Origin: a virus | Virus record (IMG/VR): IMGVR_UViG_3300045988_140118 | Strand: one strand, 5' to 3' | DNA: 64,000 nucleotides | Shown here: one piece after another, positions 6,493 through 31,118 of the stretch | How the letters are laid out: the number at the start of each line of letters is the position of its first letter | Numbering within the stretch: the stretch's first letter is position 1 | Notes under the pieces: model-generated | The model's input: only the letters and a program-made list of their open reading frames with translations | Database searches by the model: none | Told to the model about the DNA's origin: nothing | Position numbers and translations under genes: made by a program

Positions 6493-7481
6493 TGAATCCA
6501 CAATTAGGGAGGTTGGGATCAGTCTCCCCATCGTTACTAAATGGTGGTTCTGCGAAACCTATTTTTCGTGGAGACTTAGTAGACTTCTTCACCTTTAAAG
6601 GGAAGGGTAATATGGACCTTGACCGTAATACAATAACCGGACTCCTAGAGAATAAATTAACAGCCTACAATTTTGGATGGAGTTTAATGTCAGGGTATGG
6701 GGGGTATAATGAAAATTATCTGACTTATTCTAAAGCTGCTAATGTATTCGTAACGGATGATCATTCTATTACGATAATGAACTTTGTTCCGGCCAATACT
6801 TGGATACTTTTCAAATATGGAACTGAGCATTTAAATACTACAAGAATAAGAGTGACAGGACTTACAGCCAATAACCAACTTGCTTATGGGTATTCACCTA
6901 CTAATGATGGAGCAAGAGTCTTAATGGCAATTCCCTCAGATGGAGAATATGATTTACCTAAGAGTGTAGTTAATACTCAAACTTATAATGTTGGTTTCAT
7001 TGTACAGAACGCCTTATCTCAAAATGTAACTATACAGCAAATTCCAGAATATGAAGGGGCAATAGTTACGGATGGCGTTAACGATTATCTGAAACTTGAT
7101 AAGGTAGGATATAAGATAGGAACTGTTATAATTAAATATGTCCCTATTTCAATACATGCAGGATGGAATGTAGTATTTGATACCTATAATGATGTTTATG
7201 AAAATAAATGCTTAATGTTCTACAATAGAATTGTTAGCAATTGGGGTTCTACTATGAACAGAAAAATTATAAATGATTATTCTGCATTTGTTAGCAACAC
7301 TCCTAAAAATGTAGATGTGCCTTTATATCTTGCAGCAAGGTATGAAAATACAGTTAAAGATTATCTTAATATGGCTCTATATGATATTGCTATTTACAGC
7401 ACTGCTCTGTCTGAGGAGGATGTTCAGAAAGAAATATCCGAAGCTTTTCCTAAATACGAACAATTAATTTTAAACAGGTGA
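6489..7481 (+). CDS. hypothetical protein with C-terminal LamG/concanavalin-like signature
   Basis: The C-terminal LYLAARYENTVKDYLNMALYDIAIYSTALSEEDVQKEI resembles the end of LamG-type lectin domains. Confidence 0.4.
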   Translation: MMNPQLGRLGSVSPSLLNGGSAKPIFRGDLVDFFTFKGKGNMDLDRNTITGLLENKLTAYNFGWSLMSGYGGYNENYLTYSKAANVFVTDDHSITIMNFVPANTWILFKYGTEHLNTTRIRVTGLTANNQLAYGYSPTNDGARVLMAIPSDGEYDLPKSVVNTQTYNVGFIVQNALSQNVTIQQIPEYEGAIVTDGVNDYLKLDKVGYKIGTVIIKYVPISIHAGWNVVFDTYNDVYENKCLMFYNRIVSNWGSTMNRKIINDYSAFVSNTPKNVDVPLYLAARYENTVKDYLNMALYDIAIYSTALSEEDVQKEISEAFPKYEQLILNR

Positions 7482-7780
7482 TTATGGATTTTTTTCTAAA
7501 GGAACCTTTATCTGTATACCAAAACGGAAATATGTACTCTATCCGGACGCAGACTAAAGGGGTAGAACAGTTAGGTCAAGTATTGTTTTTTGATGTGACT
7601 AAATCGGTGGCTATTTCCTTTGCAAAAGATTTTTGCTTAGAAAATACTTCCATGTTTCAGGTAAATAGAGTTATCAGTGATAAGGAAGTTTCATTAAGAG
7701 ACGTTCTTAAAGTAATTGCTGAGACTACTCTTTCTGACAATAAAAAACAAGAATTATTTTTAAAACTAAACTCTTTGTAA
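7478..7780 (+). CDS. hypothetical protein
   Basis: 100 aa with a 4-nt overlap to the upstream gene. Confidence 0.55.
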   Translation: MIMDFFLKEPLSVYQNGNMYSIRTQTKGVEQLGQVLFFDVTKSVAISFAKDFCLENTSMFQVNRVISDKEVSLRDVLKVIAETTLSDNKKQELFLKLNSL

Positions 7781-7781
7781 T

Positions 7782-8459
7782 ATGTTAGATAAAACAAAAA
7801 CCGATTCCGTATTAGGAGCAAGCGTAAATGAAATGCTTCTAGAGTTGGGAGTTGAAACTCCTATGGTTGGTTTAACTCCGTTAACGTCCGAAGATAAATA
7901 CGCCAGTATAAAAGATGCTGTTTTTGATATTATGCAGTGTTTGGGTCTTGACACGGAGGATGACAGTTTGGCACGTACTCCCCATAGAATAGCCAAGATG
8001 TTTTTGGACGAATTGTTTTGGGGACTTGACTACGATAATTTCCCGAAAATAACAACTATCGAGAATAAAATGCAGTATAATTCCTTGCTAATGGAAAGAC
8101 ACATTAAAGTTCATTCTATGTGTGAGCATCATTTCGTACCCATTATCGGAGAAGCTTTTATTGCATATATTCCCAACGAACGGGTGATAGGTCTTTCAAA
8201 GATCAATCGTGTTGTTGAGTTTTTCTGTAGAAGACCGCAAGTGCAAGAACGTTTATGTGAACAGATATTCCATACTTTACGCTATATTTTAGGCACCGAA
8301 AGCGTTGCCGTTCTTATTCGGGCAGAACATTCATGCGTAAAAGTAAGAGGTATTGAAGATATTAACTCTGACACGCAGACGTGCAGATTCTCCGGTGCGT
8401 TTAATGAAGTAGCTACCAGAGGAGAGTTTTACAGTTTAATCGGCATGAATAATGGCTAA
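7782..8459 (+). CDS. folE: GTP cyclohydrolase I (FolE type)
   Basis: RTPHRIAKMF, CEHHFVPIIGEAFIAYIP and GLSKINRVVEFFCRRPQVQERL are hallmark FolE motifs. Confidence 0.9.
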   Translation: MLDKTKTDSVLGASVNEMLLELGVETPMVGLTPLTSEDKYASIKDAVFDIMQCLGLDTEDDSLARTPHRIAKMFLDELFWGLDYDNFPKITTIENKMQYNSLLMERHIKVHSMCEHHFVPIIGEAFIAYIPNERVIGLSKINRVVEFFCRRPQVQERLCEQIFHTLRYILGTESVAVLIRAEHSCVKVRGIEDINSDTQTCRFSGAFNEVATRGEFYSLIGMNNG

Positions 8460-9033
8460 TAAAAAATACGTTGCTATTAATGGAATCTACGTAGAGAAAG
8501 CAATATTCTCTACGTATTTTGTTTGTGACTATGATGTATGCAAAGGAAAGTGCTGTTATGCTACCTTATCAGACGGGACCTATCTTTTAGGTGGTGGATT
8601 AACCAATGACGAGGCTAAGGAACTAACCCGAAAAAGACATGCACTCCTTAAGTATGTACCTAACAAACTACAGCAGTTTGCTGTTACTCCTGTAGTGTAC
8701 ACAGCTTTCGGAAATTTCACTTGTTTATCCGATAACAACGTATGTTGTTACTCTGATTCTGAAAATCGTTGTTGTGCCCTTAAAAACGCTCACAAAAGTG
8801 GCGATTTATCTTTTCCTATTCCGGTAGAGTGCTCTTTGTATCCGTTGAGTTATGAAGGACCGAATACCAAAGCTGGTTATTTAAAGCTTTTACATACGTT
8901 TGATGAATTTTGTGGGTGTGCCTATGAAAAGGGAAACAGAGAAAAAATATGCGTTATTGACTTTGTGAAAGATTCTATTATCCGCTTATTGGGAACAGAA
9001 TTTTTTGATGCTCTTAAAAACTATAAACTCTAA
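8452..9033 (+). CDS. Cys-rich protein, DUF3109-like
   Basis: The N-terminal FVCDYDVCKGKCC pattern and length (193 aa) resemble the Bacteroidota DUF3109 family. 8-nt overlap with folE. Confidence 0.45.
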   Translation: MANKKYVAINGIYVEKAIFSTYFVCDYDVCKGKCCYATLSDGTYLLGGGLTNDEAKELTRKRHALLKYVPNKLQQFAVTPVVYTAFGNFTCLSDNNVCCYSDSENRCCALKNAHKSGDLSFPIPVECSLYPLSYEGPNTKAGYLKLLHTFDEFCGCAYEKGNREKICVIDFVKDSIIRLLGTEFFDALKNYKL

Positions 9034-17527: not shown

Positions 17528-18946
17528 ATGGAATCGAAAAAATTAATTGCCTGCCTGAAAGGTTGCAGAACCCGTTACAGTAAAAATGCAGATCCTAAGA
17601 TGGAGTCCAAAGTAGTAACTTCTTTATTAAAGGACAGTGACCCTTCTTTCCTGCAAATGTTGAAAGAAAAAAGTTCCGACCTATATCACTACGTAAATAC
17701 AGTTTTGAGCGTATCCGACCTTAAAACGCCTAAATTGACGAGATCTCCTGTGGTACTTCCTTCTGAAAATACGGAATGTCTCGCACACAGTACAAAAGGA
17801 GTGGTCTATGAAATTGACACCATCAAGAAAACCTGTAAACGGGTACTCTCCGATCTGTCACAGTTAGCCGATACAGAAATCGAGATGGAGGAAATGCCGA
17901 TGACGGTTTACCAAAGATACCTGAAGGATAAATTTTTCGGTGAGACTGTAGTCATTAAAAAAGGAAAACTCCTGTTCAGAGGATACCGGGTTTCCTGCAC
18001 AAAGGAAAACGGTTTTATGATTGAGGATACCATGAATAAATATAAAGTGGTAGATACAACATTCGAGGGCATCCCTACTCCGGCAGAATTGGGAGAATTT
18101 TTCGTCCGTCCTCGTGTAGAGCATACACCGGAAGATTTACATGCTGCTGTTGAAAGAGGCAAACAGCTAGCTTCCGAAAAAACAAAGACGGTCAGTATTG
18201 AAGTGGAAGAACCGGAAGAAGTAGACTTCGAAACACTCCGGTTAAAAGTGCTCGGAAAGATTAACGCTATCCGTGAAGGAAAGGTTTCAAACTTTGACCC
18301 GGTGGATTTTCCGAAGATGATACCGTTTCGCAGATGGAAACGTTCGGTATCTATCCATATTAATAAATGGAAGAACAAAAAGCTCCGGTATAAAACTTTA
18401 TTAGCCGCCATTGAGAAAGTAACTCGTGAGGAGACTTTCGTGGTAGAGGAAAAAAATCACCGGAGTTCTTTTGTAGGAACTATCCTTCCCGAATTTAAAA
18501 CAGTAGGACGGTTGATCGGTAACAAACTGGAGGTAGACGGTAAGTTGGTGGACGCTGTTCCTTTCTTGCAGGCTCACTTACTCCATTATGAACCGAAAGC
18601 CATGCAACAACTAATGCGATTTGCCCGACACGAGATTGATGCGGTAACTTTGCTACAGAATCCTTATCACGATGACTGGAAGATTGAGTACAACAGCAAA
18701 CTGTTACCCAATACCAAAGAGGTAGCCGATATTCTCTCCGCCTTACATGAAAGTACAGGACTTTGTGTACCACAAGATGTTTTATATGAAGCAGACCTGA
18801 AAATTGGAGATAAAATACTTATATTTGTCGATGGCTCTTGGAAACGTAAAACAATTACTGAGCTTGAAAACGGTATTTGTATCAATAAGGGAGTCGGGCT
18901 AATGAAATATGATAAGTGGATAAAATTAGACGATGAAAAGAAGTGA
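17528..18946 (+). CDS. hypothetical protein (472 aa)
   Basis: Long ATG ORF, 1 nt after the upstream stop. No motif recognised. Confidence 0.65.
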   Translation: MESKKLIACLKGCRTRYSKNADPKMESKVVTSLLKDSDPSFLQMLKEKSSDLYHYVNTVLSVSDLKTPKLTRSPVVLPSENTECLAHSTKGVVYEIDTIKKTCKRVLSDLSQLADTEIEMEEMPMTVYQRYLKDKFFGETVVIKKGKLLFRGYRVSCTKENGFMIEDTMNKYKVVDTTFEGIPTPAELGEFFVRPRVEHTPEDLHAAVERGKQLASEKTKTVSIEVEEPEEVDFETLRLKVLGKINAIREGKVSNFDPVDFPKMIPFRRWKRSVSIHINKWKNKKLRYKTLLAAIEKVTREETFVVEEKNHRSSFVGTILPEFKTVGRLIGNKLEVDGKLVDAVPFLQAHLLHYEPKAMQQLMRFARHEIDAVTLLQNPYHDDWKIEYNSKLLPNTKEVADILSALHESTGLCVPQDVLYEADLKIGDKILIFVDGSWKRKTITELENGICINKGVGLMKYDKWIKLDDEKK

Positions 18947-19292: not shown

Positions 19293-19677
19293 AATGGTAA
19301 AACACATAGGTGTTTCTGATCGCCCTTCTTTTGAAGAATTAATTGGTGCGCCTAGTGATTCTATCCCTGAACGAAATACATTCGTTTATCACGTGGTAAA
19401 TACGTATGATAATCTACCAACGTCCGTGCATGTTGTTTATAACGTACATACCGGAAAACTTGGTAGTGTACGTTTCGGTTCAAGAAAACATCTGGGTTAT
19501 TGGATGGACTTTTCCCTATTGCCTGGATTTGTTGCCAAACGTGACCAAACCATTTCCGGAAATCCGGAACATCGGGTTACTCTGAGAAGAGGAAAGTTCC
19601 TCTGTATTCTTGATAACATAGAATATGATTATTCGGGAGTTTCATATATGACGGTTATTTATTCTAGAAAGCCATGA
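19198..19677 (+). CDS. predicted secreted protein or lipoprotein
   Basis: N-terminal MKNVLRLKILGFILLCCAQISAQN: basic n-region, hydrophobic core, then either a Cys (lipobox-like LLC) or an AQISA/Q signal-peptidase I site. Confidence 0.55.
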   Translation: MKNVLRLKILGFILLCCAQISAQNKVSLLPAEMVKHIGVSDRPSFEELIGAPSDSIPERNTFVYHVVNTYDNLPTSVHVVYNVHTGKLGSVRFGSRKHLGYWMDFSLLPGFVAKRDQTISGNPEHRVTLRRGKFLCILDNIEYDYSGVSYMTVIYSRKP

Positions 19678-19778
19678 TCTTACTTGGAGTTATTTTTGTT
19701 CTTCTTGCCTGCATGACAAAGAAGAAATTTTGGAGAATCTTATTTTGGATACTTGCTATTTTAATTGTATTCTTTTGA
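19674..19778 (+). CDS. small hydrophobic protein (34 aa, two TM-like segments)
   Basis: Below the ORF-track cutoff, translated by hand: MILLGVIFVLLACMTKKKFWRILFWILAILIVFF. The ATG overlaps the upstream TGA (ATGA). It exactly fills the gap to the next gene. Confidence 0.4.
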   Translation: MILLGVIFVLLACMTKKKFWRILFWILAILIVFF

Positions 19779-19779
19779 T

Positions 19780-20100
19780 ATGGAATTACGTTGTTATAAT
19801 GTAAAGGAGATTTGGCATGAATGTGTCAAGTGCCGGATTGGAGATGACATAGGAATCTATGCTGACAAGTTTGAGCTTCGTAAAGAAGATATTAAGTCAA
19901 TGGTTTCCCAGATAAAGAATGACCACGGAGAAACTTATTGCTGTGAATGTCACATACGACAAGACGGTGAACAATGGACTCCTTATCGTCAGATAGTTGA
20001 GATGCTAATATTAATGGGAGCTAAAGCAGGTGCATTGCATTTCTGCGGCTCCTTAGTAGATAACCCTTTAATTCGTTTTGAACAATATGGCCAGAAATAG
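19780..20100 (+). CDS. hypothetical protein
   Basis: First ATG of track ORF 19765-20100. Confidence 0.5.
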   Translation: MELRCYNVKEIWHECVKCRIGDDIGIYADKFELRKEDIKSMVSQIKNDHGETYCCECHIRQDGEQWTPYRQIVEMLILMGAKAGALHFCGSLVDNPLIRFEQYGQK

Positions 20101-20484: not shown

Positions 20485-21135
20485 ATGCAGAAAGAGAAAC
20501 AAATAAAATCGTACCAGCGAAAAACCAAATCAGGTAAAGTAGTTACAGTAAAAGCACATACTGCTAAATATACTGCTGCCGACATGGCTGCTGAAGCATT
20601 GAGAAAAAAGCATGGTGCCGGTAATGAACTTGAAGGACTTAAAAGAAAATCTCCCGGTAATAAAGAAAAACCATCTGAAAGGCAATCCAAGGAACTTCTA
20701 CATTCATCGTCTGGAAAGGTATATAAGAGGGGTAGTTCTGGAGAACTCGTTGAGGTTAACCCATCAAAGACCTCTAAGAAAAAAGAGACTAAAAAACCGA
20801 AACCCCGTTCTAATGCAAAGAGTAAGAATAGGACTATAGGTACAGGAGTTAATGGACCCGTTAAGAAGAGTCCCAAGACGAAAGATGTACTGCCCATTCC
20901 CGAAGCCAAAACTAAGAAACGCATGTCTCCAAAAAGTACAAAAAGAACTGGACACGCTGGGAAATCTACCCCTTTTAGTGGACAGACACAGCTTAAACAG
21001 GAAATGGCTATGTGGAAGAAATCTCCAACAAGTGCTATGGGAAAAGCAAGTAGGAATAATATAACTAAACTTCTTCAAGAGAAGAAAAAGCAGGGTCATA
21101 AACTTACCAAAAGAGAAGAAGCCTTTTTGTGGTAG
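20485..21135 (+). CDS. highly basic Lys-rich protein with shared N-terminal motif (member A)
   Basis: Start moved to ATG 20485, downstream of the terminator and promoter. N-terminus MQKEKQIKSYQRKTKSGKVVTVKAHT. The rest is K/S/P-rich and looks disordered. Contains IGTGVNGPVKK. Confidence 0.65.
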   Translation: MQKEKQIKSYQRKTKSGKVVTVKAHTAKYTAADMAAEALRKKHGAGNELEGLKRKSPGNKEKPSERQSKELLHSSSGKVYKRGSSGELVEVNPSKTSKKKETKKPKPRSNAKSKNRTIGTGVNGPVKKSPKTKDVLPIPEAKTKKRMSPKSTKRTGHAGKSTPFSGQTQLKQEMAMWKKSPTSAMGKASRNNITKLLQEKKKQGHKLTKREEAFLW

Positions 21136-21150
21136 CTAAAATAAAATCAC

Positions 21151-21158
21151 TATCTTTG
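21151..21158 (+). promoter_or_regulatory. -7 box TATCTTTG with -33 TTTG at 21126-21129
   Basis: TAnnTTTG with 21-nt spacing to TTTG. 50 nt upstream of the ATG at 21209. Confidence 0.55.
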
Positions 21159-21159
21159 C

Positions 21160-21195
21160 AGGTGAGCATCGGTAAAACGGTGTTCACCTATTTTT
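21160..21195 (+). terminator. hairpin plus T-run (terminator or leader structure)
   Basis: AGGTGAGCA / TGTTCACCT stem (1 G-U pair) followed by TTTTT. It lies immediately after the -7 box, so its role is ambiguous. Confidence 0.45.
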
Positions 21196-21208
21196 GTACC
21201 CAATAGAA

Positions 21209-21421
21209 ATGCAGATAAATTCATCTAACATAAGAGAAGCTGACTATGATCGAAAAAGTCGTTTACTAAGGATGACTTTTATAAATCGTCCTCGTTGGGA
21301 GTATACTTATTACAATGTTCCCCCGACTATATGGACCCGCTTTCTTCAGGCATCCAGTAAGGGAGGTTACTTTTCCGACTTTATTAGGGATGTGTTTAGA
21401 TATAGTAGAATAATAAAGTAA
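21209..21421 (+). CDS. KTSC domain protein
   Basis: SSNIREADYDRKSRLLRMTFINRPRWEYTYYNVPPTIWTRFLQASSKGGYF fits the KTSC pattern. ATG 21209 chosen over the TTG at 21194. Confidence 0.6.
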   Translation: MQINSSNIREADYDRKSRLLRMTFINRPRWEYTYYNVPPTIWTRFLQASSKGGYFSDFIRDVFRYSRIIK

Positions 21422-21440
21422 CATTAAAATCGTAGAAATT

Positions 21441-21971
21441 ATGGGAACTATTACAAGAGTGTTTGAGTTTGATTGTGCCCATCGGGTAATGAATGAAAAA
21501 GTAAAATGTTTCAATTTGCATGGTCACAGGTTCAAAGCGGAAGTGACCCTTTCTTACTCAGAGAAAGCTGCTTTAGGTTATGCAACCGACTTTAAAGAAT
21601 TGAAAAGGATTTTAGGTGATTTCATAGACAGGTTTTTAGACCATGCCTGTTTACTGAACCCCGAAGATCTGGGTCTTATTACCATGTGCTCCGAAAATAA
21701 ATGGCGCTTGTGGATTATGGGATTAGGACATCATGCGGATGTTAATCCTTCTGCTGAGAATATTGCTTCTGAACTTTTCTACATCTTCAGACAGTTTTTT
21801 CCTAAAGACTCTCAAACCAGTATTGAGAAGATCCGTTTATACGAGACTCCTAATTGTTGGGTAGAGGTTACTGGCTACGACTATGAAGCCACAGAATCTT
21901 TTCAAAAAGAGATTATGAAGTGGAGAAACTCAAAAGGAACATTCAACTACGATATAAGAACTGATATTTGA
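21441..21971 (+). CDS. queD: 6-carboxy-5,6,7,8-tetrahydropterin synthase (QueD / PTPS family)
   Basis: FEFDCAHRV...CFNLHGHRFKAEVTL...DFKELKRILGDFIDRFLDHACLLN matches the QueD catalytic Cys/His and zinc-His pattern. Confidence 0.8.
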   Translation: MGTITRVFEFDCAHRVMNEKVKCFNLHGHRFKAEVTLSYSEKAALGYATDFKELKRILGDFIDRFLDHACLLNPEDLGLITMCSENKWRLWIMGLGHHADVNPSAENIASELFYIFRQFFPKDSQTSIEKIRLYETPNCWVEVTGYDYEATESFQKEIMKWRNSKGTFNYDIRTDI

Positions 21972-21972
21972 T

Positions 21973-23625
21973 ATGCCAAAACTAAGGAAGAAAACTCCTG
22001 ATGAAGAAGGGTATGTATTTCCCGCTACTGGTAAGAGTATAGATGATATACATACTGAAGACATTGCCGGAAAATCTATCTCTTTTGATGCCCACGAGAT
22101 TACAGGTAAGATTATCGAGTTCGGGAAAGTCCTTACAGGAATCTCTTTGTACAAGTATCAAGAAGACATAGCTTATGGAATTATATATTCCGTCATTACT
22201 TTTTCCGGAGATGTAAAGACTGTGCTTCTTTCCAGACAGTCCGGTAAGTCTGAGGTAATGGCATTTGTAATTGATACACTTACCGTTCTAATGCCGGCAC
22301 TTGCAAATATTATCCCTGAGTTCGAACAATTCCAGACCGGATTTCGAATAGGACTGTTTGCTCCACAAAGTGATCAGGTAGAAACTACTTATTCCAGAGC
22401 ACTTGCCAGAATTAATTCCGCTAATGCGGAAATGGTTTTAGATGACCCTGATATTGGTGTTTCTTTGGAAAGTGCCGTTCGTTTGCAATTAAGCAACGGT
22501 TCTTTTCTTGCCGGACAAACTGCCAGTAAACAATCTAAGATCGAGTCTAAAACTTATGACCTAGTAATTGTTGAAGAGGCTCAGGACGTTGATGACTTTA
22601 TTGTCAGCAAGTCCATAGAACCTATGCTTTCTTCTACTGCCGGAACTCTTATTAAAGTAGGTACTACTGGTATGACTAAGAATCACTTTTACTACGAGAT
22701 TCAACATAACCGAAACAGTGACCGAAAACTAAAAGATCCCAGAGTACGGAATCATTTTGAGTATGACTATAAAAAGATTATTCAAGACCGTAAAAAGCAA
22801 TATGATTTAGACCACAAACGTTTCCACCTTAATTACGAGGCGGATGTTTTGCGTAAAAAAGCTCGTTGGGGAGAAGACTCTCAGGCATTTAAACTTGCTT
22901 ATGCGTTGATATGGGACTTGGAAAGCGGTATGCTTATTACCGATAAAGAGTATAATAAACTTCTTAACCGTAAATTAGGCTATCAAGATCCTACCGAAAG
23001 AGACTTGGTAGTTGCTGGTCTGGATATTGCTAAAAGTCCTGCCAGCACTGTCTTGACTATCGGAAAAGTTATCCCAAACGAAGATCCTTTTGAAAGAAAG
23101 AAAAAACAAATTCTTGCGTGGGTTGACCTGAAAGGACTTGACTATGAAGCTCAACACCGTGTTATCATGGATTGTATTGTCGATTTCAATATTTCTATTA
23201 TCTTTGCGGATTATACAGGTGTCGGTAAGCCAGTAGTAGACCGTCTATCATTTGCTTGCGGAGAATATGTATCGGTTGTTCCGTACACATTTACTTCTCA
23301 GAGTAAATCGGATATGTGGTATAACTTCATTAACGAGATTCAGACGCAAAGTTTGATTATCCCGGCTAATAAAACAGTTCGTGAATCTGAGGAATATAAA
23401 TGCTTCGAGGAACAGATTAAAAACTGCCAAAAATATTATAACGGCTCTTACTTAGTCTGTGAAAAGTCGGAGGGATTTTTTGATGACTATGTAGATAGTA
23501 CAGCTCTTATGTGTTTGGCGGGTAATGACGAACCGGAGATTGAAGACGAGATGGAGGTAACTGACAATCCGTTGTACTCGAATATCTCAGATACAATTAA
23601 TGCACTTAGAAGATACTCTTTTTAA
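21973..23625 (+). CDS. terL: terminase large subunit
   Basis: Walker A-like LLSRQSGKSE, Walker B-like YDLVIVEEAQ and a C-terminal nuclease-like AGLDIAKSPASTVLTIG. Positioned upstream of the portal. Confidence 0.85.
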   Translation: MPKLRKKTPDEEGYVFPATGKSIDDIHTEDIAGKSISFDAHEITGKIIEFGKVLTGISLYKYQEDIAYGIIYSVITFSGDVKTVLLSRQSGKSEVMAFVIDTLTVLMPALANIIPEFEQFQTGFRIGLFAPQSDQVETTYSRALARINSANAEMVLDDPDIGVSLESAVRLQLSNGSFLAGQTASKQSKIESKTYDLVIVEEAQDVDDFIVSKSIEPMLSSTAGTLIKVGTTGMTKNHFYYEIQHNRNSDRKLKDPRVRNHFEYDYKKIIQDRKKQYDLDHKRFHLNYEADVLRKKARWGEDSQAFKLAYALIWDLESGMLITDKEYNKLLNRKLGYQDPTERDLVVAGLDIAKSPASTVLTIGKVIPNEDPFERKKKQILAWVDLKGLDYEAQHRVIMDCIVDFNISIIFADYTGVGKPVVDRLSFACGEYVSVVPYTFTSQSKSDMWYNFINEIQTQSLIIPANKTVRESEEYKCFEEQIKNCQKYYNGSYLVCEKSEGFFDDYVDSTALMCLAGNDEPEIEDEMEVTDNPLYSNISDTINALRRYSF

Positions 23626-23634
23626 AATTACGAT

Positions 23635-25230
23635 ATGGGAATAGGTACTATGAATCCTTCAGGACCCGGTAGCTATAACGGCTATCCCGGTTCCGATTAT
23701 TGGGCTGTAGACAGTCGGCCACTTAGCGAAGCTACAAATGTGCTTCGTTCTTTTGTTACGCAGAATATCGTTCAAGATAACCAATGGGAAATAGATCGGT
23801 TGACCCGGTATTATTTGTTCTGGAAATTTTATGATGGACTTCATTACAAAGACTTTAATGATGGGATGCTCTCTTTTAACTATATTCGAGCATTTATTGA
23901 TAAAGTAAATATGTTCCTGTTGGGAGATGAAGCATTTACCTTTCATGTGAAAAGTTTCTATTCTACACAGATAGATAACGAGCTTGAAAAAAATGCCGAG
24001 GAACTAATGATGTATCATTGGGGAAAGTCTAAGAAGGTTTCTCTCGCCTACGAGATGTTACAAATGGGGGGAATTACAGGTGATTGTTGGTTAGGGGTTG
24101 ACTGGATGCCTGATGACCTTGACAGATATTGTAAGATAAGTGTTTACGATAGCCGCCAGGTATTCCCCCATTTTAAAGGGGGAGACTTTAACAACATGGA
24201 TGCTTTGCTGATTCGTATTCCTCTAGATGTGAAAGGAAATGCCCAACCTTACCGTTTGTATGTAATCAGATGGACTCCCAAAAATATGGAGACGTGGTAT
24301 CAGAAAGACGTTTCTATTGATGAAGATTCCGTAGTTAAGTATGACTATACGAAAACTAAAAATGTATATGGATTTATTCCGATCGTACACATTAAAAATA
24401 AACCTAATTCTTCCGGATTTTACGGTAAATCTGATGCAAACGATATATTGAAAATAAACAAAGTATATAACGAATTAATTCAGCAAGTAAAGGCTGTCAT
24501 TGATTATCATGTAACACCTACGACCGTAATTACTGGAGCTTCTGCTAAATCACTGAAAAAAGGACTTGGACAAATATGGTCAGGACTTCCTGCCGAAGCC
24601 AATGTGTTTAATTTAGGTCTTGATGTGGATCTATCTGCTACAGTTAATTTTATCAAAGACTTAAAAACCGCTATGCACGAACTATCTGATGTTCCGGAAA
24701 ACGCATTAGGTAAAATTCAAGCAATAAGCAATACTTCCGCAGCCGCTTTGCAGATTACTTATCATCCGCTATTACAGCAAGCGAATATAAAAGCTATGAC
24801 TTATGGTGAAGGAATTGCCGAAGTAAACCGGATGATCTTTAGGATTCTTGATACGGTAGATCCTGAAAACGAACGTCTAGTTAAAATTAAACAACTAAAC
24901 CCCAATTTTCTTTCTGAGATGTTGGTAGAACCCGTTTTCGCTTATGGTTTCCCGAAAGATAAGATGGATGAATTGCAACGTGCCCAGTTGGAACTTAATA
25001 TGAAATTAGGTAGCAGACGTGAGATTATGGAACGTATGGGTAAACAGAACATTCCTGAACTTTTGCAGGAGATTGATGACGATACTGTACAACAAGCCCT
25101 GTTACAAGTAGAGATTAATGAAATGGTTGCTGGCGGAAATCCTGAAGAATCTACAGAAGCACCTTCTCTTGAAACAGAAGATATTTCTGGAAATGAAGAA
25201 TCTGTTAGCAGTGGTGAAATGACAGAATAA
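23635..25230 (+). CDS. portal protein
   Basis: 531 aa, directly after terL, with an acidic C-terminal tail. Synteny-based call. Confidence 0.7.
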   Translation: MGIGTMNPSGPGSYNGYPGSDYWAVDSRPLSEATNVLRSFVTQNIVQDNQWEIDRLTRYYLFWKFYDGLHYKDFNDGMLSFNYIRAFIDKVNMFLLGDEAFTFHVKSFYSTQIDNELEKNAEELMMYHWGKSKKVSLAYEMLQMGGITGDCWLGVDWMPDDLDRYCKISVYDSRQVFPHFKGGDFNNMDALLIRIPLDVKGNAQPYRLYVIRWTPKNMETWYQKDVSIDEDSVVKYDYTKTKNVYGFIPIVHIKNKPNSSGFYGKSDANDILKINKVYNELIQQVKAVIDYHVTPTTVITGASAKSLKKGLGQIWSGLPAEANVFNLGLDVDLSATVNFIKDLKTAMHELSDVPENALGKIQAISNTSAAALQITYHPLLQQANIKAMTYGEGIAEVNRMIFRILDTVDPENERLVKIKQLNPNFLSEMLVEPVFAYGFPKDKMDELQRAQLELNMKLGSRREIMERMGKQNIPELLQEIDDDTVQQALLQVEINEMVAGGNPEESTEAPSLETEDISGNEESVSSGEMTE

Positions 25231-25273
25231 CCTAAATTTTTGCGTTATATTTTGTTATTTAGAAATAAAGGTG

Positions 25274-25281
25274 TATTTTTG
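25274..25281 (+). promoter_or_regulatory. -7 box TATTTTTG with -33 TTTG at 25251-25254
   Basis: TAnnTTTG with 19-nt spacing to TTTG. 45 nt upstream of the ATG at 25326. Confidence 0.55.
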
Positions 25282-25325
25282 AACCGCTATCAGTAATTAA
25301 ATGTTTCACTAAAAATTTTAAAATC

Positions 25326-25523
25326 ATGGCTGGATTACAGACATTAGATCCCAAAGACCCGGAAGCATTGCACGATATAGGGCAGAGCAAGGGTATGAAA
25401 GTTAGCGAAAAATTCGTTAACCCCGGTACACCGGATTCACCGTTGGTTAGTAGAGAACAGATGACGCAGGCTACCATTAAAGGTAATGGCGCTGAAGTTA
25501 TGAAGGCTAACCTTATTAAGTAA
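25326..25523 (+). CDS. hypothetical protein
   Basis: 65 aa ORF downstream of a promoter box. The antisense 155-aa ORF was rejected. Confidence 0.5.
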   Translation: MAGLQTLDPKDPEALHDIGQSKGMKVSEKFVNPGTPDSPLVSREQMTQATIKGNGAEVMKANLIK

Positions 25524-25561
25524 CTATTCCCAATTTGTAAAACTTCTAATCGTAGAATAAA

Positions 25562-26278
25562 ATGGATCATACCGAAGAAACAACAGTAACTATCCCAGAA
25601 AGTATTACAATCGGCGGAATCTCTTATGTAGTTAGAGACACTCCGGAATTGCTTAAGTTCATGCAAGCCGTTGCTAAAGTTGAGAAAAACAAGATGTACA
25701 CGCAGTTCGAACTTTTGCGGAAACAAATCAACCAGTTATCAAAGACTCCTGTATCTACTACCCCTTTGGATGCAACATCATTGATAGCCGAGTTGAAAGA
25801 ATCTTTTGTAACCAAAGAAGATTTGGCGAACACAGTAAAAGAAGCGTTGCAGCCGGTTATTTCTTACAATCAGCAAACGCAGCAGGAAACTCTTGAAACA
25901 TTCCGGGAGAAACTACTTAAAGAAAATGACGGAAAATGTATTCCTGAACTGGTCACTGGAAACAGCAAAGAGGAACTTCTTCAATCCCTTGAAAAATCAA
26001 AAGAGCTTTATTCGAAGTATGGTGGAGGTCCGGTTGGTCGCCCGCAAGACGCTAGTCCTGTAGTAGATCCTACTTTGGCACGCCAAGCTGCTAATCTCGC
26101 TCCTGAAGATATTGCTCCCAGATATATTCCTCCTGTTCCTGCTCCGGCACCTAGAGTTTCTGCTCCCGAATTTACAGGACAATCTGGACTTGAAAATATC
26201 AAGAGCCTCTCTCCTGAAGAGTTCGCTGCCAAACGTGCCGAACTTGAAAATACACTTAAACAGTTGTATGGAAACTAA
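25562..26278 (+). CDS. putative scaffolding protein
   Basis: 238 aa, predicted helical/coiled (QFELLRKQINQLSK, ELLQSLEKSKELYSKY) with a Pro-rich tail. Lies between the portal and the major capsid gene. Confidence 0.5.
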   Translation: MDHTEETTVTIPESITIGGISYVVRDTPELLKFMQAVAKVEKNKMYTQFELLRKQINQLSKTPVSTTPLDATSLIAELKESFVTKEDLANTVKEALQPVISYNQQTQQETLETFREKLLKENDGKCIPELVTGNSKEELLQSLEKSKELYSKYGGGPVGRPQDASPVVDPTLARQAANLAPEDIAPRYIPPVPAPAPRVSAPEFTGQSGLENIKSLSPEEFAAKRAELENTLKQLYGN

Positions 26279-26320
26279 TTTCGTCCTACCCATTAAATAA
26301 CTAAAAACAAGAAAAAGAAG

Positions 26321-27322
26321 ATGATTACATTGTTGACATTCTTACTGGCTACGTTAGGTAGCATAGTAGTAGGATTTGCTTTCGGTGAGACTACTGCTGC
26401 TGGTGCTAATACTGGTGGCTATACAGCTATACCACAAGCAGTCCGTGACTTTTATTCACGTGAGGTTATGTTTAAAGCACAGCCTCGTTTGCGTTTTTTG
26501 CAGTTTGCTAAAATAAAACGAGACTTACAGGCCGTTCGTGGAAAATCTATTGTATTTGTTAAATACGGAAACCTTGAAGGTGGTGGTTCTTTGGAGGAAA
26601 GTGATGTGCTGACTCCGGAAGGTATGACTACTTCTGAAATTAGTATCCCGGTTAAAGAACAGGGAAATGCTGTTCAGGTTACTGAATACCTTTTGAGAAC
26701 TTCTATTTTGGATGTGTTGGGTGATGCTTCAAAACTATTGGCTAATAACGTTGCTAAGGTATTGGATACTCAGTTCCGTGATACTGTTTTGAAAACACCT
26801 AATACTGTATATGGAGGTACTGCTACACAATTATCGGAACTTTCTACAAGCAATGGTGCGTTTACTACAAAAACAGTAAAAGATGCCGTTGAAATTTTGG
26901 CTACTCACAATGCACCGAGAATTGCAGGTGACTACTACGTTTGTGTCGCTCACCCCCATCAATTGAGACAGTTGCGTGACGATAAGGAATGGATTAATGC
27001 CAATACTTATATGGGACGTAGACAGTTGTATATCGGTGAAGTAGGTATGTACGAAGGAACTATCTTTATTGAAACTACTCAGATGCCTATGCTTAACGCT
27101 GCGGGAATTAAAGCTAAGTATGGTTCCGGGGCTACTGTAGATACTGCTTATGAAGCCGTGTTCTTCGGAGACAACGCTTATGGTTGGGGAGTTGCTTTGG
27201 ACGTAGAACTTCGTGATGACGGTGTGGTAGAACTTGGACGTAAACATACTCTTGGCTGGTATGGTATTTGGGGAACCGGCATTATCGAGGAGAATAACAT
27301 TGTAAAAGCTCTCACTGTATAA
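26321..27322 (+). CDS. major capsid protein
   Basis: 333 aa at the canonical position. YSREVMFKAQPRLRFLQFAKIKRDLQAVRGKSIVFVKYGNLEGG resembles N4 gp56-type major capsid proteins. Unusual hydrophobic N-terminus. Confidence 0.7.
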   Translation: MITLLTFLLATLGSIVVGFAFGETTAAGANTGGYTAIPQAVRDFYSREVMFKAQPRLRFLQFAKIKRDLQAVRGKSIVFVKYGNLEGGGSLEESDVLTPEGMTTSEISIPVKEQGNAVQVTEYLLRTSILDVLGDASKLLANNVAKVLDTQFRDTVLKTPNTVYGGTATQLSELSTSNGAFTTKTVKDAVEILATHNAPRIAGDYYVCVAHPHQLRQLRDDKEWINANTYMGRRQLYIGEVGMYEGTIFIETTQMPMLNAAGIKAKYGSGATVDTAYEAVFFGDNAYGWGVALDVELRDDGVVELGRKHTLGWYGIWGTGIIEENNIVKALTV

Positions 27323-27358
27323 GGTGAGAGTATTTCTTTAACGCTTAAAATTTGCATT

Positions 27359-27619
27359 ATGGCTAGACAAAAAATTGAAGACCCAGATTTGTTACAACCG
27401 GATCTGAACGAGGAAAAAAATGAAGAAGGAGTCGAAAAGCAACCGGTAAAAGATGCTACTGTACAAGAAAAACAGAGAAAGGTTTCTTGTAGAGTTGTTG
27501 ATGACGTTAATGTATTTATCGGTAGCAGACATATTGTATGCAAGAAAGATTCTAATGTGAGTCTTGATTCAGACGTAGCTGCTATCTTGTCACACGCTGG
27601 AAAACTATATAGACTTTAA
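27359..27619 (+). CDS. hypothetical head-associated protein
   Basis: 86 aa ORF immediately after the capsid gene. Confidence 0.5.
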   Translation: MARQKIEDPDLLQPDLNEEKNEEGVEKQPVKDATVQEKQRKVSCRVVDDVNVFIGSRHIVCKKDSNVSLDSDVAAILSHAGKLYRL

Positions 27620-27623
27620 ATAA

Positions 27624-28598
27624 ATGGCACAGTCCAAGGTAACTTTGAAAGAGATAATGGTAGCGGTCCGGGAGTTAACTTTCGACCGCTTCATTATTCC
27701 GGCATTTGCAATAAAACAGATGGGGAAGGATGTTTATATTGATATTGATCCTTCTTTTAAACCTGTTAGTGAGGAACCCGTAGAACCTGGAAGATTAAGA
27801 ATCTTCAAAAAAGAAACCTCCATTGACCCCGATACGGAAACTGAAGAAATAATTGAAAAACCTATCGTAGAATTATTGTTTGCTGACTATCCAGAAGTAG
27901 ACGATATATTGAATCAGCTAATAGATCAAGGAATCGTAATTGCGTATACTCCGTATTATCGTAGCGAAGAACCCTCCACCAGCCTTATAAAAACTACTTT
28001 CGAACTTACTGAAGATCGTACTATTTTCAGACGCTATTTTTTTGCGGACGAAGAAATTATAGATGTTATTCAATGGTACTATTATACCGTACTTAGAATA
28101 CCCAATGCAGAAATTAATGATGAACTGGTTGGCCTTTTAAAACGTCCCTCTGAGAGACATCTCTCCGTTTGGGTAGCTTACCAGTTAGTTGATAAACGGC
28201 GTATGTATGAAGCTGCTGCCAATAGCATAGGACAGTCTTTTACTGATGGCTCTGACTATACCGGCTCTTCCGGCAGTTCCTCTCCTACATCTACAACGGT
28301 ACAAATTGGCTCCGTTTTTTCTATCACGGAGGATGCACAACAAGGTTATTTTTACGAGGATTTCAATCGTGTGGGTTCTGACAATACATGGGGTGACAGA
28401 TATTCTTTTTGGTATAAGCTTATGCTTTACCTAAGAAACATTCTTGAAGAACATTTTGGAGATTACCGCTTGCGTAAAGACAATGTGATTCCCGGATATA
28501 TTTCTTTGCAAAGGGAACTTGACTTTAGAGAATATTTCGACAGCTATCCGTTTACTCTATCCCCACTGTCCCGTGGAATCTTATCTAAAACACCCTAA
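27624..28598 (+). CDS. hypothetical structural protein
   Basis: 324 aa in the head/neck module. No motif recognised. Confidence 0.6.
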   Translation: MAQSKVTLKEIMVAVRELTFDRFIIPAFAIKQMGKDVYIDIDPSFKPVSEEPVEPGRLRIFKKETSIDPDTETEEIIEKPIVELLFADYPEVDDILNQLIDQGIVIAYTPYYRSEEPSTSLIKTTFELTEDRTIFRRYFFADEEIIDVIQWYYYTVLRIPNAEINDELVGLLKRPSERHLSVWVAYQLVDKRRMYEAAANSIGQSFTDGSDYTGSSGSSSPTSTTVQIGSVFSITEDAQQGYFYEDFNRVGSDNTWGDRYSFWYKLMLYLRNILEEHFGDYRLRKDNVIPGYISLQRELDFREYFDSYPFTLSPLSRGILSKTP

Positions 28599-28601
28599 AA
28601 T

Positions 28602-29054
28602 ATGGAAATACAAGTAAAGTCCTATCAGAGAAGGACAAAATCTGGAAAGCTTATCACTGTAAAACCCTACTCCCGTAAAGGTGATAAAAAAGCTAAAGTA
28701 ACCGGACAAAAAGTTCGCGGAAATGAACTAGTGTCTATGAAGCTAGAGAATTACGTTAATAATCTTGGTCCGGACGATTTTAAGGAACTGGTTGATACTC
28801 TGGAAGAGTACGCTGATACTACTTTGTGGAGTAAAACAGGAACCGTCAAAAGACAGAATGTTATAAATCTTATCAGAGAAGAGGCAGCTCACTCAGGAGA
28901 AGGTCCTAATAGGAATCCTATGGATTTTGTTGTTAAATCTCTTATGAAAGGTAAAGCGAAAACCCCCTTAACCTCTAAACAAGCTGATAAGAGATATGCG
29001 TTTTATGACGATAAGACCCTTAAAAAAGTACGTAATAGAGTAAGAAGCACTTAA
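28602..29054 (+). CDS. basic protein with shared N-terminal motif (member B)
   Basis: N-terminus MEIQVKSYQRRTKSGKLITVKPYSRKG is paralogous to 20485, 29496 and 30651. Confidence 0.65.
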   Translation: MEIQVKSYQRRTKSGKLITVKPYSRKGDKKAKVTGQKVRGNELVSMKLENYVNNLGPDDFKELVDTLEEYADTTLWSKTGTVKRQNVINLIREEAAHSGEGPNRNPMDFVVKSLMKGKAKTPLTSKQADKRYAFYDDKTLKKVRNRVRST

Positions 29055-29055
29055 T

Positions 29056-29493
29056 ATGTTAGTAGATAAAGCAAGATTTTTGTCCTACCAGAACTTGTTT
29101 TATAGGAAGCTGCAACAGACTCCTTATAAAATTCAGCTTGAAGTGGTTACTGTGCAGAGAGTGGAACCTACTGAAGACTTTTCTTTTGATGCTTTCGTAG
29201 GAGACAGTCCGAGAGAATCTACGTTTTATAGTTTTCAAGCTCTTTACGAAAAGGAGATTCCAAACCGCACCCGTGAGAAATACGGCCTTCCTAAAGAAGT
29301 AAACGGGGTTGTTTATCTCTCCCCTTTACAATTAGTACCCAAATTAGGTGACTACCATCTGAACTGGAATAAGACGAAAGTACATTTTGAAGGAAGAGTA
29401 CAAGTAGTTGATAAAATAGTCTACCTTGAAGAATTATACGGAAGCTGTGTAGGCTTACAGATATTTATCAAGGATGATTTAAAAGGAGGTTAA
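29056..29493 (+). CDS. hypothetical head-tail joining protein
   Basis: 145 aa. Position only. Confidence 0.5.
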   Translation: MLVDKARFLSYQNLFYRKLQQTPYKIQLEVVTVQRVEPTEDFSFDAFVGDSPRESTFYSFQALYEKEIPNRTREKYGLPKEVNGVVYLSPLQLVPKLGDYHLNWNKTKVHFEGRVQVVDKIVYLEELYGSCVGLQIFIKDDLKGG

Positions 29494-29495
29494 CT

Positions 29496-29804
29496 ATGAC
29501 AAAAGTAAAGACACATAAGCGTAAAGGAAAGAATAAGGTTTCCGTTGTTAAGCAGCACAATCGTAAAGATAAGGTGTCTGCTTTTCGTGGTGCTAAAGAG
29601 TTCTCTGAAAAACAACGAGATAAACTTTCTTCCAAAGGAGAAGCATTACCTGATGGTTCTTACCCAATCGCCAGTAAACGGGATTTGGCAAACGCTATTT
29701 CTTCTTACGGACGTGCTAAGAATCCTGAGATTGTTAAACGATGGATCAAGAAACGTGCTAAAGCTCTTGGTGCTTGTGACATGATCCCTGCAAACTGGAA
29801 GTAA
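29496..29804 (+). CDS. basic protein with shared N-terminal motif (member D)
   Basis: N-terminus MTKVKTHKRKGKNKVSVVKQHNRKDK. C-terminal LPDGSYPIASKRDLANAISSYGRAKN...KKRAKALG. Confidence 0.6.
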   Translation: MTKVKTHKRKGKNKVSVVKQHNRKDKVSAFRGAKEFSEKQRDKLSSKGEALPDGSYPIASKRDLANAISSYGRAKNPEIVKRWIKKRAKALGACDMIPANWK

Positions 29805-29806
29805 GT

Positions 29807-30049
29807 ATGGCTACTAACCAAAAAGATATTGATCATATTAATGCGCATAAGAATTTGGACGTTCAAACTAGTGTGATTCCTCGTTATCCTGAGATAGAGA
29901 AAATTGTTCGGTACGAACGTACTCCGGAACACTATCGTGAAGAGAACGAGGTTGCCGCTTATGCCGCTATGGGAAGACCTAATGCCAATACCAATACTAA
30001 GAGTTGGTATCGGGATATTTATGAATTTTATCAGAACAATGAATACTAA
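29807..30049 (+). CDS. hypothetical protein
   Basis: 80 aa ATG ORF, 2 nt after the upstream stop. Confidence 0.5.
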   Translation: MATNQKDIDHINAHKNLDVQTSVIPRYPEIEKIVRYERTPEHYREENEVAAYAAMGRPNANTNTKSWYRDIYEFYQNNEY

Positions 30050-30080
30050 GATCTATTTTATTAACTAAAAACAAATTGTT

Positions 30081-30194
30081 ATGCCTACAAAATCTAAAAA
30101 GACAAAAGAGGAAAATCCACCTGTAAACCCCAAAGGTACTAAAAAAGATCCTCCTATTGGAACTGGAGTAAATGGACCCGTAATAAAGAGATGA
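30081..30194 (+). CDS. small basic protein (37 aa)
   Basis: Below the ORF-track cutoff, translated by hand: MPTKSKKTKEENPPVNPKGTKKDPPIGTGVNGPVIKR. Shares IGTGVNGPV with the 20485 protein. It fills the intergenic gap exactly. Confidence 0.45.
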   Translation: MPTKSKKTKEENPPVNPKGTKKDPPIGTGVNGPVIKR

Positions 30195-30195
30195 T

Positions 30196-30654
30196 ATGCG
30201 TAAATTCCCTAGATTACCAAAAGCCTTACTTAAAACACCTCCTGGCTTTAAAAAACCAAAGGTGTCTGACTTTAAGACTGACATGCAACATTTAGGGGAA
30301 GAAATTGCCGAAGATTTTAAAGAGACAGTAATTGCCAACATAGAGGAGAATAATTACAATTTCGAAAATGCTCCTAGTACAGTAAAACAAAAAGGCAGTG
30401 ATACCCCTCTGATAAATACTCAGGAATTAGTAGATTCTATCTATAGGGAAGGGACTGTTGTTTCAGTAGAGAATACTCCACGAGACGATAGTCCCTTAAC
30501 TAATTTAGAGTTGGCTATGGTTCTTGAATATGGTACAAAGGATAGGCATATTCCTGCACGTCCGGTCTGGAGAAATACATATCGTGACTTTAAAGAGGAA
30601 GCACGGGAAAAAGTTGAAGAGTTTTTTAAACTTCAAAAGTCTAAGAAGAAATGA
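30196..30654 (+). CDS. HK97 gp10-like head-tail adaptor
   Basis: ELAMVLEYGTKDRHIPARPVWR matches the gp10-family signature (E.GT.....PARPf). Confidence 0.55.
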   Translation: MRKFPRLPKALLKTPPGFKKPKVSDFKTDMQHLGEEIAEDFKETVIANIEENNYNFENAPSTVKQKGSDTPLINTQELVDSIYREGTVVSVENTPRDDSPLTNLELAMVLEYGTKDRHIPARPVWRNTYRDFKEEAREKVEEFFKLQKSKKK

Positions 30655-31118
30655 CAGAGATTACCATTAAAGGATATTCAAGAAGATCTCGTAAAGGGAA
30701 CTTGGTCAAAGTAAACAGCTACAAACGGAGGGTAGGAAAGAAAGGAGTCATCTCTCCCAAAAAGACTTCTCCTGTCAAAGAAGCTGCTACTTCTACACCT
30801 ACACCCGGTGCTGAGATAAAAACAAAACTTAGTCCTGAAGAACTTGCACGTAGACGTGCTTGGGATAAAGAGGCTAGAAGAGCCAGTATGTCTGCTTATG
30901 GCGGACGTGCCGAAACAAAAGAAGAGTGGCAGAGACGAGTCCAACGTGAAGAGGATGATCGAAAATCTAACGAGATTCCCGGATATAAACCTAAACGGTC
31001 AACTCCCCCTGCTAGAGAGATTAAGAAAAAGAAAGCCGACATCTTTGCCCGCATTGAAGACAAGATCGCTCGTTTTTCTGAAAAATACGGTAAGAAGAAA
31101 TATAAACGCTATTTATAA
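30651..31118 (+). CDS. basic protein with shared N-terminal motif (member C)
   Basis: N-terminus MTEITIKGYSRRSRKGNLVKVNSYKRRVGKKG. The remainder is K/R/E-rich. Confidence 0.6.
   Translation: MTEITIKGYSRRSRKGNLVKVNSYKRRVGKKGVISPKKTSPVKEAATSTPTPGAEIKTKLSPEELARRRAWDKEARRASMSAYGGRAETKEEWQRRVQREEDDRKSNEIPGYKPKRSTPPAREIKKKKADIFARIEDKIARFSEKYGKKKYKRYL

Follow-up and report, generated by a model that had tools for sequence, protein, structure and literature searches.

What does a short basic sequence do at the N-termini of four otherwise dissimilar proteins of one phage? The question is posed by IMG/VR record IMGVR_UViG_3300045988_140118, a stretch of 64,000 nucleotides from a phage of a gut Bacteroides lineage, which was analysed over its whole length and is called the window below. 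A first-pass annotation of this DNA had pointed to four dispersed proteins, here P1 to P4, that share a motif in their first 25 or so residues, and had offered two explanations: a targeting or encapsidation tag, or a nucleic-acid-binding hairpin on histone-like DNA condensers. The comparisons reported here show that this N-terminal leader is a real, conserved and previously undescribed module. The reading of its role that we favour, with a probability of roughly 0.45, is that it serves as a virion-incorporation signal on internal or ejected proteins.

A leader common to four basic proteins

The four N-termini quoted in the first-pass annotation match open reading frames (ORFs), all on the plus strand. 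The proteins are basic, as it had stated, with isoelectric points (pI) of 10.0-10.6, and their C-terminal parts have no significant mutual similarity. Its description of them as largely low-complexity holds for P1 and P4 but not for P3, which has a conserved helical domain. The genes and the two parts of their leaders lie as follows.

20485-21135, + strand: P1, 216 aa, pI 10.6; identical to BFVD A0A8S5S9Q4 of 'Myoviridae sp. ctByu2'
20503-20571, + strand: predicted β-ribbon of P1, residues 7-29, IKSYQRKTKSGKVVTVKAHTAKY; hidden Markov model (HMM) score 49.9 bits
20614-20631, + strand: second leader element of P1, GAGNEL, residues 44-49
28602-29054, + strand: P2, 150 aa, basic; C-terminal part near-orphan
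28614-28682, + strand: predicted β-ribbon of P2, residues 5-27, VKSYQRRTKSGKLITVKPYSRKG; HMM score 47.6 bits
28719-28730, + strand: second leader element of P2, GNEL, residues 40-43
29496-29804, + strand: P3, 102 aa; short-turn hairpin and conserved helical domain (ALPDGSYPI...DLANAI...GRA...KRAKALG)
29505-29567, + strand: predicted hairpin of P3, K-N-K-V class, residues 4-24, VKTHKRKGKNKVSVVKQHNRK; HMM score 32.7 bits
29589-29603, + strand: second element of P3, GAKEF, residues 32-36
30651-31118, + strand: P4, 155 aa, pI 10.5; start (ATG) overlapping the stop codon of the Neck1-like gene
30666-30731, + strand: predicted β-ribbon of P4, residues 6-27, IKGYSRRSRKGNLVKVNSYKRR; HMM score 30.2 bits; orthologues have IKEHRRKNKKGEWITVKGYTRR
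30807-30818, + strand: second element of P4, GAEI, residues 53-56; PGDEF in orthologues

Across all six frames of the window the motif was found at these four sites only, by a loose regular expression with which a local HMM agrees, and each site lies no more than seven residues from a start codon. Residue shuffles gave an expectation of 0.057 matches per six-frame translation of the window and of 0.004 in Lys/Arg-rich segments, so the similarity goes beyond what such composition yields by chance (4 matches against 0.004-0.06). For P2, P3 and P4 the reading frame offers no alternative start from the preceding stop codon up to the ATG, and the ATG of P1 corresponds to the invariant M1 in the alignment of its 70-member family; the motif therefore stays N-terminal if start codons are reassigned. 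An exhaustive profile search, one of the checks that the annotation had suggested, returned 235 proteins at E ≤ 0.001 among 1.84 billion representatives.

One might still suspect that Lys/Arg-rich composition or faulty gene calling produced the likeness, given that the proteins are rich in these residues and that narrow family HMMs tie P3 and P4 to P1 marginally (9.0 and 10.8 bits, where shuffles reach at most 8.5-8.9). We regard this as extremely improbable. Besides the shuffle counts and the representatives recovered by the profile search, P2 reaches 37.6 bits against an HMM made from external P1-family members alone, where the shuffle maximum is 8.6; the motif persists at the four syntenic sites in over 20 related genomes despite saturated synonymous change; and AlphaFold2 models the region with high confidence. 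For P1, P2 and P4, an accident is already refuted. P3 is a variant in which the turn is one residue shorter (K-N-K-V). It is treated as the same module, with less certainty, because two further proteins bridge the classes: P0218, a P3 orthologue with a GK-type hairpin, and P0109, which resembles both hairpin classes.

At the DNA level, P1 and P2 share 14 of 23 residues, nine of them through different codons, with a third-position identity of 9/23, and the window contains no repeat of 25 bases or more. A DNA-level repeat or a recent duplication is ruled out by the differing codons for identical residues together with the lack of such a repeat, and the comparison points to selection on the protein, not on the DNA.

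The first-pass annotation had recognised no named domain here, and our searches name none either. Scans of P1-P4 against Pfam, PHROGs and NCBIfam gave nothing over the N-terminus at E ≤ 1, and sequence and profile searches of the PDB gave chance matches only (profile best 0.36). With Foldseek, the P1 model retrieved from BFVD only uncharacterised proteins of this phage itself and generic hairpins, and the P3 model found nothing in the PDB below E = 3. In the literature we found no paper on the motif or on Bacteroides phage BS162P1, the nearest cultured relative.

Sequence comparison describes the leader as a portable, bipartite N-terminal module of 25-50 residues that is common to P1-P4. In the ribbon, about 25 residues long and strongly basic, the unit [IV]-[KR]-x-[YH]-x-R-[KR] occurs twice, on either side of a turn that varies, and conserved Tyr/His and Arg stand at alternating positions; the two copies are taken as the invariant core because some tagged genes of L050 have a minimal turn (VKSHKRKGRIVKAHSRK). 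A Lys-rich linker follows and then, in this clade, the element G-[AS]-G-x-E-[LFY], 10-25 residues past the hairpin. The shorter form G-x-E-[LFI] is present in P1-P4 as GAGNEL, RGNEL, GAKEF and PGAEI, respectively, so the module extends further than the first-pass annotation had described. Among 174 carriers, 113 have G-x-E-[LFIYM] within 45 residues after the hairpin, against 6.5 ± 2.4 in shuffles and 3/104 in the next 45-residue window; the P1 family dominates this count, and at least eight cargo families show the element. Within the P1 family (70 members), G44 and G46 are invariant and E48 nearly so, and the first 50 residues hold nearly all invariant positions. This family, with N-termini of the 'MKKEK...' type, thus has a conserved leader of 50 residues followed by a variable C-terminal part of 71-644 aa.

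A hairpin had been guessed at in the first-pass annotation, and AlphaFold2 predicts one. With an alignment of 70 sequences, residues 1-30 of P1 were modelled as a two-stranded β-ribbon (strands 2-13 and 19-30) at a predicted local distance difference test (pLDDT) score of 91-97. A helix spans residues 31-55 after the ribbon, and the rest is mostly of low confidence with some C-terminal helices. Superposed on the BFVD model of P2, the P1 ribbon has a root-mean-square deviation of 0.6 Å over 29 columns. For P3 the predicted hairpin is shorter (strands 8-10 and 15-17, pLDDT 65-71) and the helical domain reaches pLDDT 75-88. A second small hairpin was modelled at residues 79-91 of P1 (20719-20757; KVYKRGSSGELVEV, pLDDT ~74), which looks like a degenerate extra copy of the motif.

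Conservation, carriers and cargo

A query with the major capsid protein (MCP) retrieved 39 IMG/VR loci. Phages whose MCP is ~80% identical to that of the window keep the motif at the same four positions. Their leaders are 56-80% identical, whereas the P1, P2 and P4 cargo behind them is 19-35% identical or unalignable, that of P4 being 29-35% identical. By alignment of the C-terminal parts, P1 is 28% identical, P2 shows no detectable similarity and P4 is 36% identical over 72 residues. P3 is the exception, being ~82% identical across the clade. Synonymous sites are saturated (synonymous differences per site, pS, 0.6-0.9), and the ratio of nonsynonymous to synonymous differences (pN/pS) is 0.17-0.42 in the leader against 0.53-0.80 in the P1/P2/P4 cargo. 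These values point to a leader held under purifying selection while its cargo turns over.

Distant relatives have more tagged genes, not fewer: four are found in the window, ~11 in L026, whose MCP is 58% identical to that of the window, and ~13 in L050. They cluster in two hot spots, one upstream of TerL and the other among the head and neck genes. BS162P1, whose host is B. salyersiae BSC162, has an MCP 86% identical to that of the window. Leader genes lie at positions 7445-7780, 7787-8482 and 18272-18580 of its record, with a further one near 19600. The annotated start of its P4-like gene (L040, coding sequence 19645-19995) lies downstream of the hairpin; the leader near 19600 (VQIKPYKRRGKNGSMVSVSGYTRRVGRKG) is excluded from the annotated protein, and no ATG is found just upstream of that leader. 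Identical proteins, none of them characterised, are listed in BFVD under 'Myoviridae sp. ctByu2'. Streptomyces phage GiJojo, with an MCP 41% identical, has portal, scaffolding protein and MCP annotated in the same order.

The top match of the profile search, P0048, was rejected as a false positive, being a NACHT-LRR repeat protein. In 164 of 187 relatives the motif begins no later than residue 8, and several of the rest look like miscalled starts. Their cargo parts fall into 35 clusters, one of 72 members (the P1 family) and 34 singletons, almost all of them without a Pfam domain. Searching 50,697 phage records by tblastn with three motif variants gave BS162P1 and MT835482 only, plus a chance-level match at E = 2. 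About 30 stretches in IMG/VR match the pattern, nearly all from this lineage, and a scan of 185,579 genomes for R[KR]TKSGKxxTV[KR] gave five matches, two of them out of frame.

A GNAT acetyltransferase is carried as cargo between TerL and portal in L052 and L053. Leader-tagged zincin-like HExxH proteins occur in L026 (13564-14127) and L050 (10221-10637); they are homologous to each other outside the leader (2e-10), the L026 protein has a weak match to the anthrax lethal factor family, and the window holds no homologue of them. A TopoIB-like cargo, recognised by eye only, was seen in a Woesearchaeota metagenome-assembled genome. The helical domain of P3 also stands alone as proteins of 69-95 aa that lack the hairpin, and the cargo part of P2 has two relatives only in a collection of 5.8 billion clusters. 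At L050 9116-9460, a hairpin (VVKSHIRKGRVVRSHKR) immediately precedes the called ATG of a DUF5754 protein (PF19058, 8e-17), which suggests a non-ATG start and a tagged DUF5754 cargo. The one copy of the motif seen at a C-terminus (YTRVKSHYRKGKNKVSVVINHKRKRK) forms the end of a NUMOD4/HNH-like ORF at L026 1908-2315.

Chromosomal proteins of Armatimonadota carry the ribbon as well. They are small and consist of a signal peptide followed by two tandem hairpins (VKGYTRKTKSGKVVTVKGYTRK); their genes are listed here.

L045 178-858: tandem-hairpin gene
L048 973-1461: tandem-hairpin gene
L043 3002-3295: tandem-hairpin gene

One Armatimonadota hairpin gene adjoins dnaN and an extracytoplasmic function (ECF) sigma factor gene. 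These hairpins are too similar to the phage ribbon to have arisen by convergence, and they show that the ribbon is an autonomous unit that is not restricted to capsids.

Inside polyvalent proteins the hairpin recurs in several copies. P0049 (InPase), P0139 (InPase, ART-PolyVal, SAM-lyase), P0089 and P0094 (no Pfam domain) have 2-4 internal copies each, of the form VKxHxRRSKTGKxxTVKxHxDSR and mostly ahead of a domain. Beside a Peptidase_S74 tail-fibre gene of L056 stands a row of five consecutive large genes, each with one copy near the N-terminus. According to Iyer, Burroughs, Anand, de Souza and Aravind 2017 (PMC5512222), phage heads are loaded with effector proteins that are injected together with the DNA, and phage-type InPase polyvalent proteins are likely to be packaged. 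The hairpin was not found described when that paper was searched by terms, and it also matches no Pfam family derived from the work.

Gene surroundings and candidate roles

Three of the proteins were said in the first-pass annotation to lie among head-completion genes and the fourth upstream of the packaging genes, and the positions agree. P1 is upstream of a KTSC-domain gene, a QueD-like gene and TerL, while P2-P4 lie between the MCP gene and the neck genes, where they abut or overlap the adjoining head and neck genes.

21194-21421: KTSC-domain protein, between P1 and QueD (PF13619, 5.4e-17)
21441-21971: QueD-like 6-pyruvoyl-tetrahydropterin synthase (PHROGs)
21973-23625, + strand: TerL, 550 aa (PHROGs)
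23635-25230, + strand: portal (PHROGs)
25562-26278, + strand: acidic scaffold-like protein, 238 aa; GiJojo has an annotated scaffolding protein at the same place
26321-27322, + strand: MCP (PHROGs)
30196-30654, + strand: tail-completion/Neck1-like gene, directly upstream of P4 (phrog_222, 1.7e-19)

The portal, the scaffold-like protein, the MCP and a 324-aa protein at 27624-28598 are acidic (pI 4.6-5.5; 4.9-5.5 within 21973-27322). Neither in the window nor in GiJojo is there a protease between portal and MCP. Terminator-like hairpins were seen at 21160-21189, directly after P1 (12-bp stem), and at 27308-27331, directly after the MCP gene; the former suggests that P1 may end a transcription unit apart from the packaging genes. 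The MCP ORF starts (26321-26430) with a hydrophobic, signal-like stretch of ~25 residues (MITLLTFLLATLGSIVVGFAF). The MCP of L026 also starts hydrophobic, and the likeness among MCPs begins near residue 37. By eye, the C-terminal sequence of L026 647-982 resembles the KTSC-domain protein of the window.

A virion-incorporation leader would be expected to show the features gathered here: an N-terminal position, purifying selection, unrelated cargo, many tagged genes, late operons and reuse in polyvalent proteins. On this reading, tagged proteins expressed late would be recruited into the assembling procapsid, probably through binding of the basic ribbon to an acidic component on the inside, for example the scaffold, the portal or the MCP on its inner face. 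Such electrostatic docking is suggested by the basic tagged proteins on one side and the acidic portal, scaffold-like protein and MCP on the other. As internal proteins, the tagged proteins would afterwards remain with the DNA and reach the next Bacteroides cell. The cargo behind the leader would be free to diversify or be swapped, so that every phage would come to inject a distinct set of basic proteins and enzymes. A fuller version, which we hold a little more tentatively, is that the leader is a portable delivery tag marking a hypervariable arsenal for capsid packaging and host injection. Under that same version, and with no greater assurance, the arsenal would comprise the small basic proteins, GNAT, the zincin-like peptidase and the ADP-ribosyltransferase (ART), InPase and SAM-lyase units of polyvalent proteins. 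Between the two options of the first-pass annotation, the comparative evidence thus lends more support to the targeting or encapsidation tag. The histone-like DNA condenser fits less well, the tag being found on GNAT, peptidase and TopoIB-like cargo, on ART/InPase/SAM-lyase polyproteins and on secreted Armatimonadota proteins.

Several observations weigh against virion incorporation. L031-L039 (MCP 40-47% identical) and GiJojo have no motif within ~10 kb of the MCP gene, so the motif is not tied to the capsid fold as such. In the part of BS162P1 that was examined, the genes of this sole cultured relative are all annotated 'hypothetical' bar those for a topoisomerase and an endonuclease. P1 occupies the place at which one might look for a small terminase; it might be that protein, or have some other DNA-related role, and no small terminase was identified among the window genes. 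Near-identical hairpins (e.g. VKSYTRKTKSGKVVTVKGYTRK) sit behind signal peptides in the secreted Armatimonadota proteins, so the ribbon is not intrinsically capsid-specific, and the copies in polyvalent proteins are internal, not N-terminal. Finally, no prohead protease was found among 58 further window ORFs, in the head-module genes or in the GiJojo annotation, so a T4-like version with a cleavable propeptide lacks its enzyme. Although the leader has a conserved G-x-E-[LF] site, a propeptide cleaved by a T4-like protease is not supported by gene content, no peptidase family having been detected in the window and no protease being annotated in the capsid module of GiJojo.

The strongest competitor, although we think it rather unlikely, sees in the leader a generic β-ribbon with affinity for nucleic acid or for some other polyanion; the basic proteins would then be histone-like condensers or DNA escorts. 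The carriers would be tethered to the phage genome in the head, to incoming DNA or to host DNA, and their presence in virions would follow from DNA binding, not from a targeting signal. The alternation of conserved Tyr/His and Arg in a strongly basic ribbon would suit such a role, as would carriers of pI 10-10.6, the place of P1 just upstream of the packaging genes and the TopoIB-like DNA enzyme recognised by eye among the carriers; the tandem hairpins of the secreted Armatimonadota proteins would fit a general ligand-binding module. However, DNA binding alone would leave the pattern of late operons, N-terminal placement and many cargoes unexplained, and would probably be insufficient, because proteins cannot enter the procapsid through the portal with the DNA. 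ART, InPase, SAM lyase, GNAT and peptidase have no obvious need of a DNA tether, still less of two to four copies, and the secreted versions are located where there is no DNA. Strict N-terminal placement (164/187) is unexpected for a DNA-binding domain, and no similarity to a known DNA-binding family was found; for a histone-like, HU or IHF fold in particular, the proteins gave no match in Pfam, NCBIfam or the PDB. The tag and the polyanion binder are not mutually exclusive.

Considerably less probable is that the leader is a signal for processing or maturation, its ribbon, its G-x-E-[LF] element or both being recognised by a protease that would cut polyproteins into units or remove a propeptide. 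Candidates would be the leader-tagged zincin-like peptidase that L026 and L050 encode, MPTase domains within polyvalent proteins, and a host enzyme. The enrichment of G-x-E-[LFIYM] after the hairpin speaks for this, but that count is dominated by the P1 family. Glu-directed sites of T4 gp21 are similar to the element. It also resembles the A-X-E↓ site of the SPN3US prohead protease gp245 (PMC10052503), the polyvalent copies lie between domains, and zincin-like peptidases have been proposed to process polyvalent proteins (PMC5512222). Yet L026 and L050, which own such a peptidase, mostly lack the G-x-E element; the window has neither a detected peptidase family nor a homologue of the L026/L050 HExxH proteins; and related capsid modules are annotated with portal, scaffolding protein and MCP but no protease.

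For few phages other than T4 is a sequence rule known that tells which proteins are loaded into the head and injected. Should virion incorporation be correct, the leader would list candidate injected proteins, likely anti-defence or takeover factors, from sequence alone in gut Bacteroides phages that are abundant and almost uncharacterised. Injected early effectors would become readable also in unrelated phages with polyvalent proteins, and the recurring element between polyvalent domains would be explained. The leader would further offer a handle for loading foreign cargo into Bacteroides phages, as the capsid targeting sequence (CTS) did in T4. Were the ribbon to prove a binder of polyanions, it would nonetheless represent a new small basic module common to phages and secreted Armatimonadota proteins.

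Further genes of the phage and its relatives were noted. A GTP cyclohydrolase I (PF01227, 5.7e-58; 7782-8459), a DUF3109 protein (8452-9033) and the QueD-like enzyme at 21441-21971 form a set that suggests DNA modification of the 7-deazaguanine type. A sigma-70 family factor with regions 2 and 4 is encoded at 5650-6171, and a ResIII/DEAD helicase at 58975-61620 is interrupted by a Hint/homing-endonuclease intein (PF05203). TerL is intein-free in the window (550 aa), whereas the TerL of L053 (529-3252) has an intein (Pfam Intein_splicing and LAGLIDADG); the TerL proteins of L026 (4352-7099) and BS162P1 (L040 9334-12057), at 907-915 aa, presumably have one too.

Comparison with known systems

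As modelled, the leader resembles the arms of HU/IHF and the ribbon-helix-helix proteins in having a basic, two-stranded antiparallel ribbon followed by a helix. No sequence or profile similarity to them was found, and their ribbons work as parts of folded, dimeric domains instead of heading unrelated cargo as an N-terminal tag. Encapsulin cargo-loading peptides are likewise short, conserved terminal peptides that mark unrelated cargo for a shell of the HK97 fold; they are usually C-terminal and rich in Gly, Ser and Leu rather than basic, and have a demonstrated binding pocket.

The propeptides of SPN3US and phiKZ ejection proteins are also N-terminal on head proteins and are cleaved at A/S/G-X-E. 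They are mostly long (111-254 residues), we found no report of a motif common to them, and the gp245/gp21-type protease that is essential there is not detectable here.

The T4 CTS is about 10 residues long (MKTYQEFIAE) and contains no basic hairpin. The leader described here, a β-ribbon of 25 residues with a linker and GxE[LF], shows no resemblance to it by eye, and no match in Pfam or PHROGs links the two. The CTS is removed by the gp21 prohead protease, whereas no protease gene was found here, and targeting, which is proposed for the present leader, has been demonstrated in T4. What the two have in common is their setting. On IPI, IPII and IPIII of T4, a short N-terminal sequence is the sole common part of diverse, fast-evolving and mostly basic proteins (PMC3012670); it directs these internal proteins into the prohead for delivery with the DNA, and the cargo loci vary between related phages. 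A short N-terminal sequence common to otherwise unrelated proteins of one phage is likewise found here, on four genes in the window, ~11 in L026 and ~13 in L050.

Polyvalent proteins differ from P1-P4, which are small, have one cargo each and contain no Pfam effector domain; the two to fifteen effector domains typical of polyvalent proteins are not found in P1-P4 but are in P0139. The likeness lies in the module itself: P0049, P0139, P0089 and P0094 hold two to four hairpin copies between effector domains, and beside them the single-domain tagged proteins look like unbundled versions.

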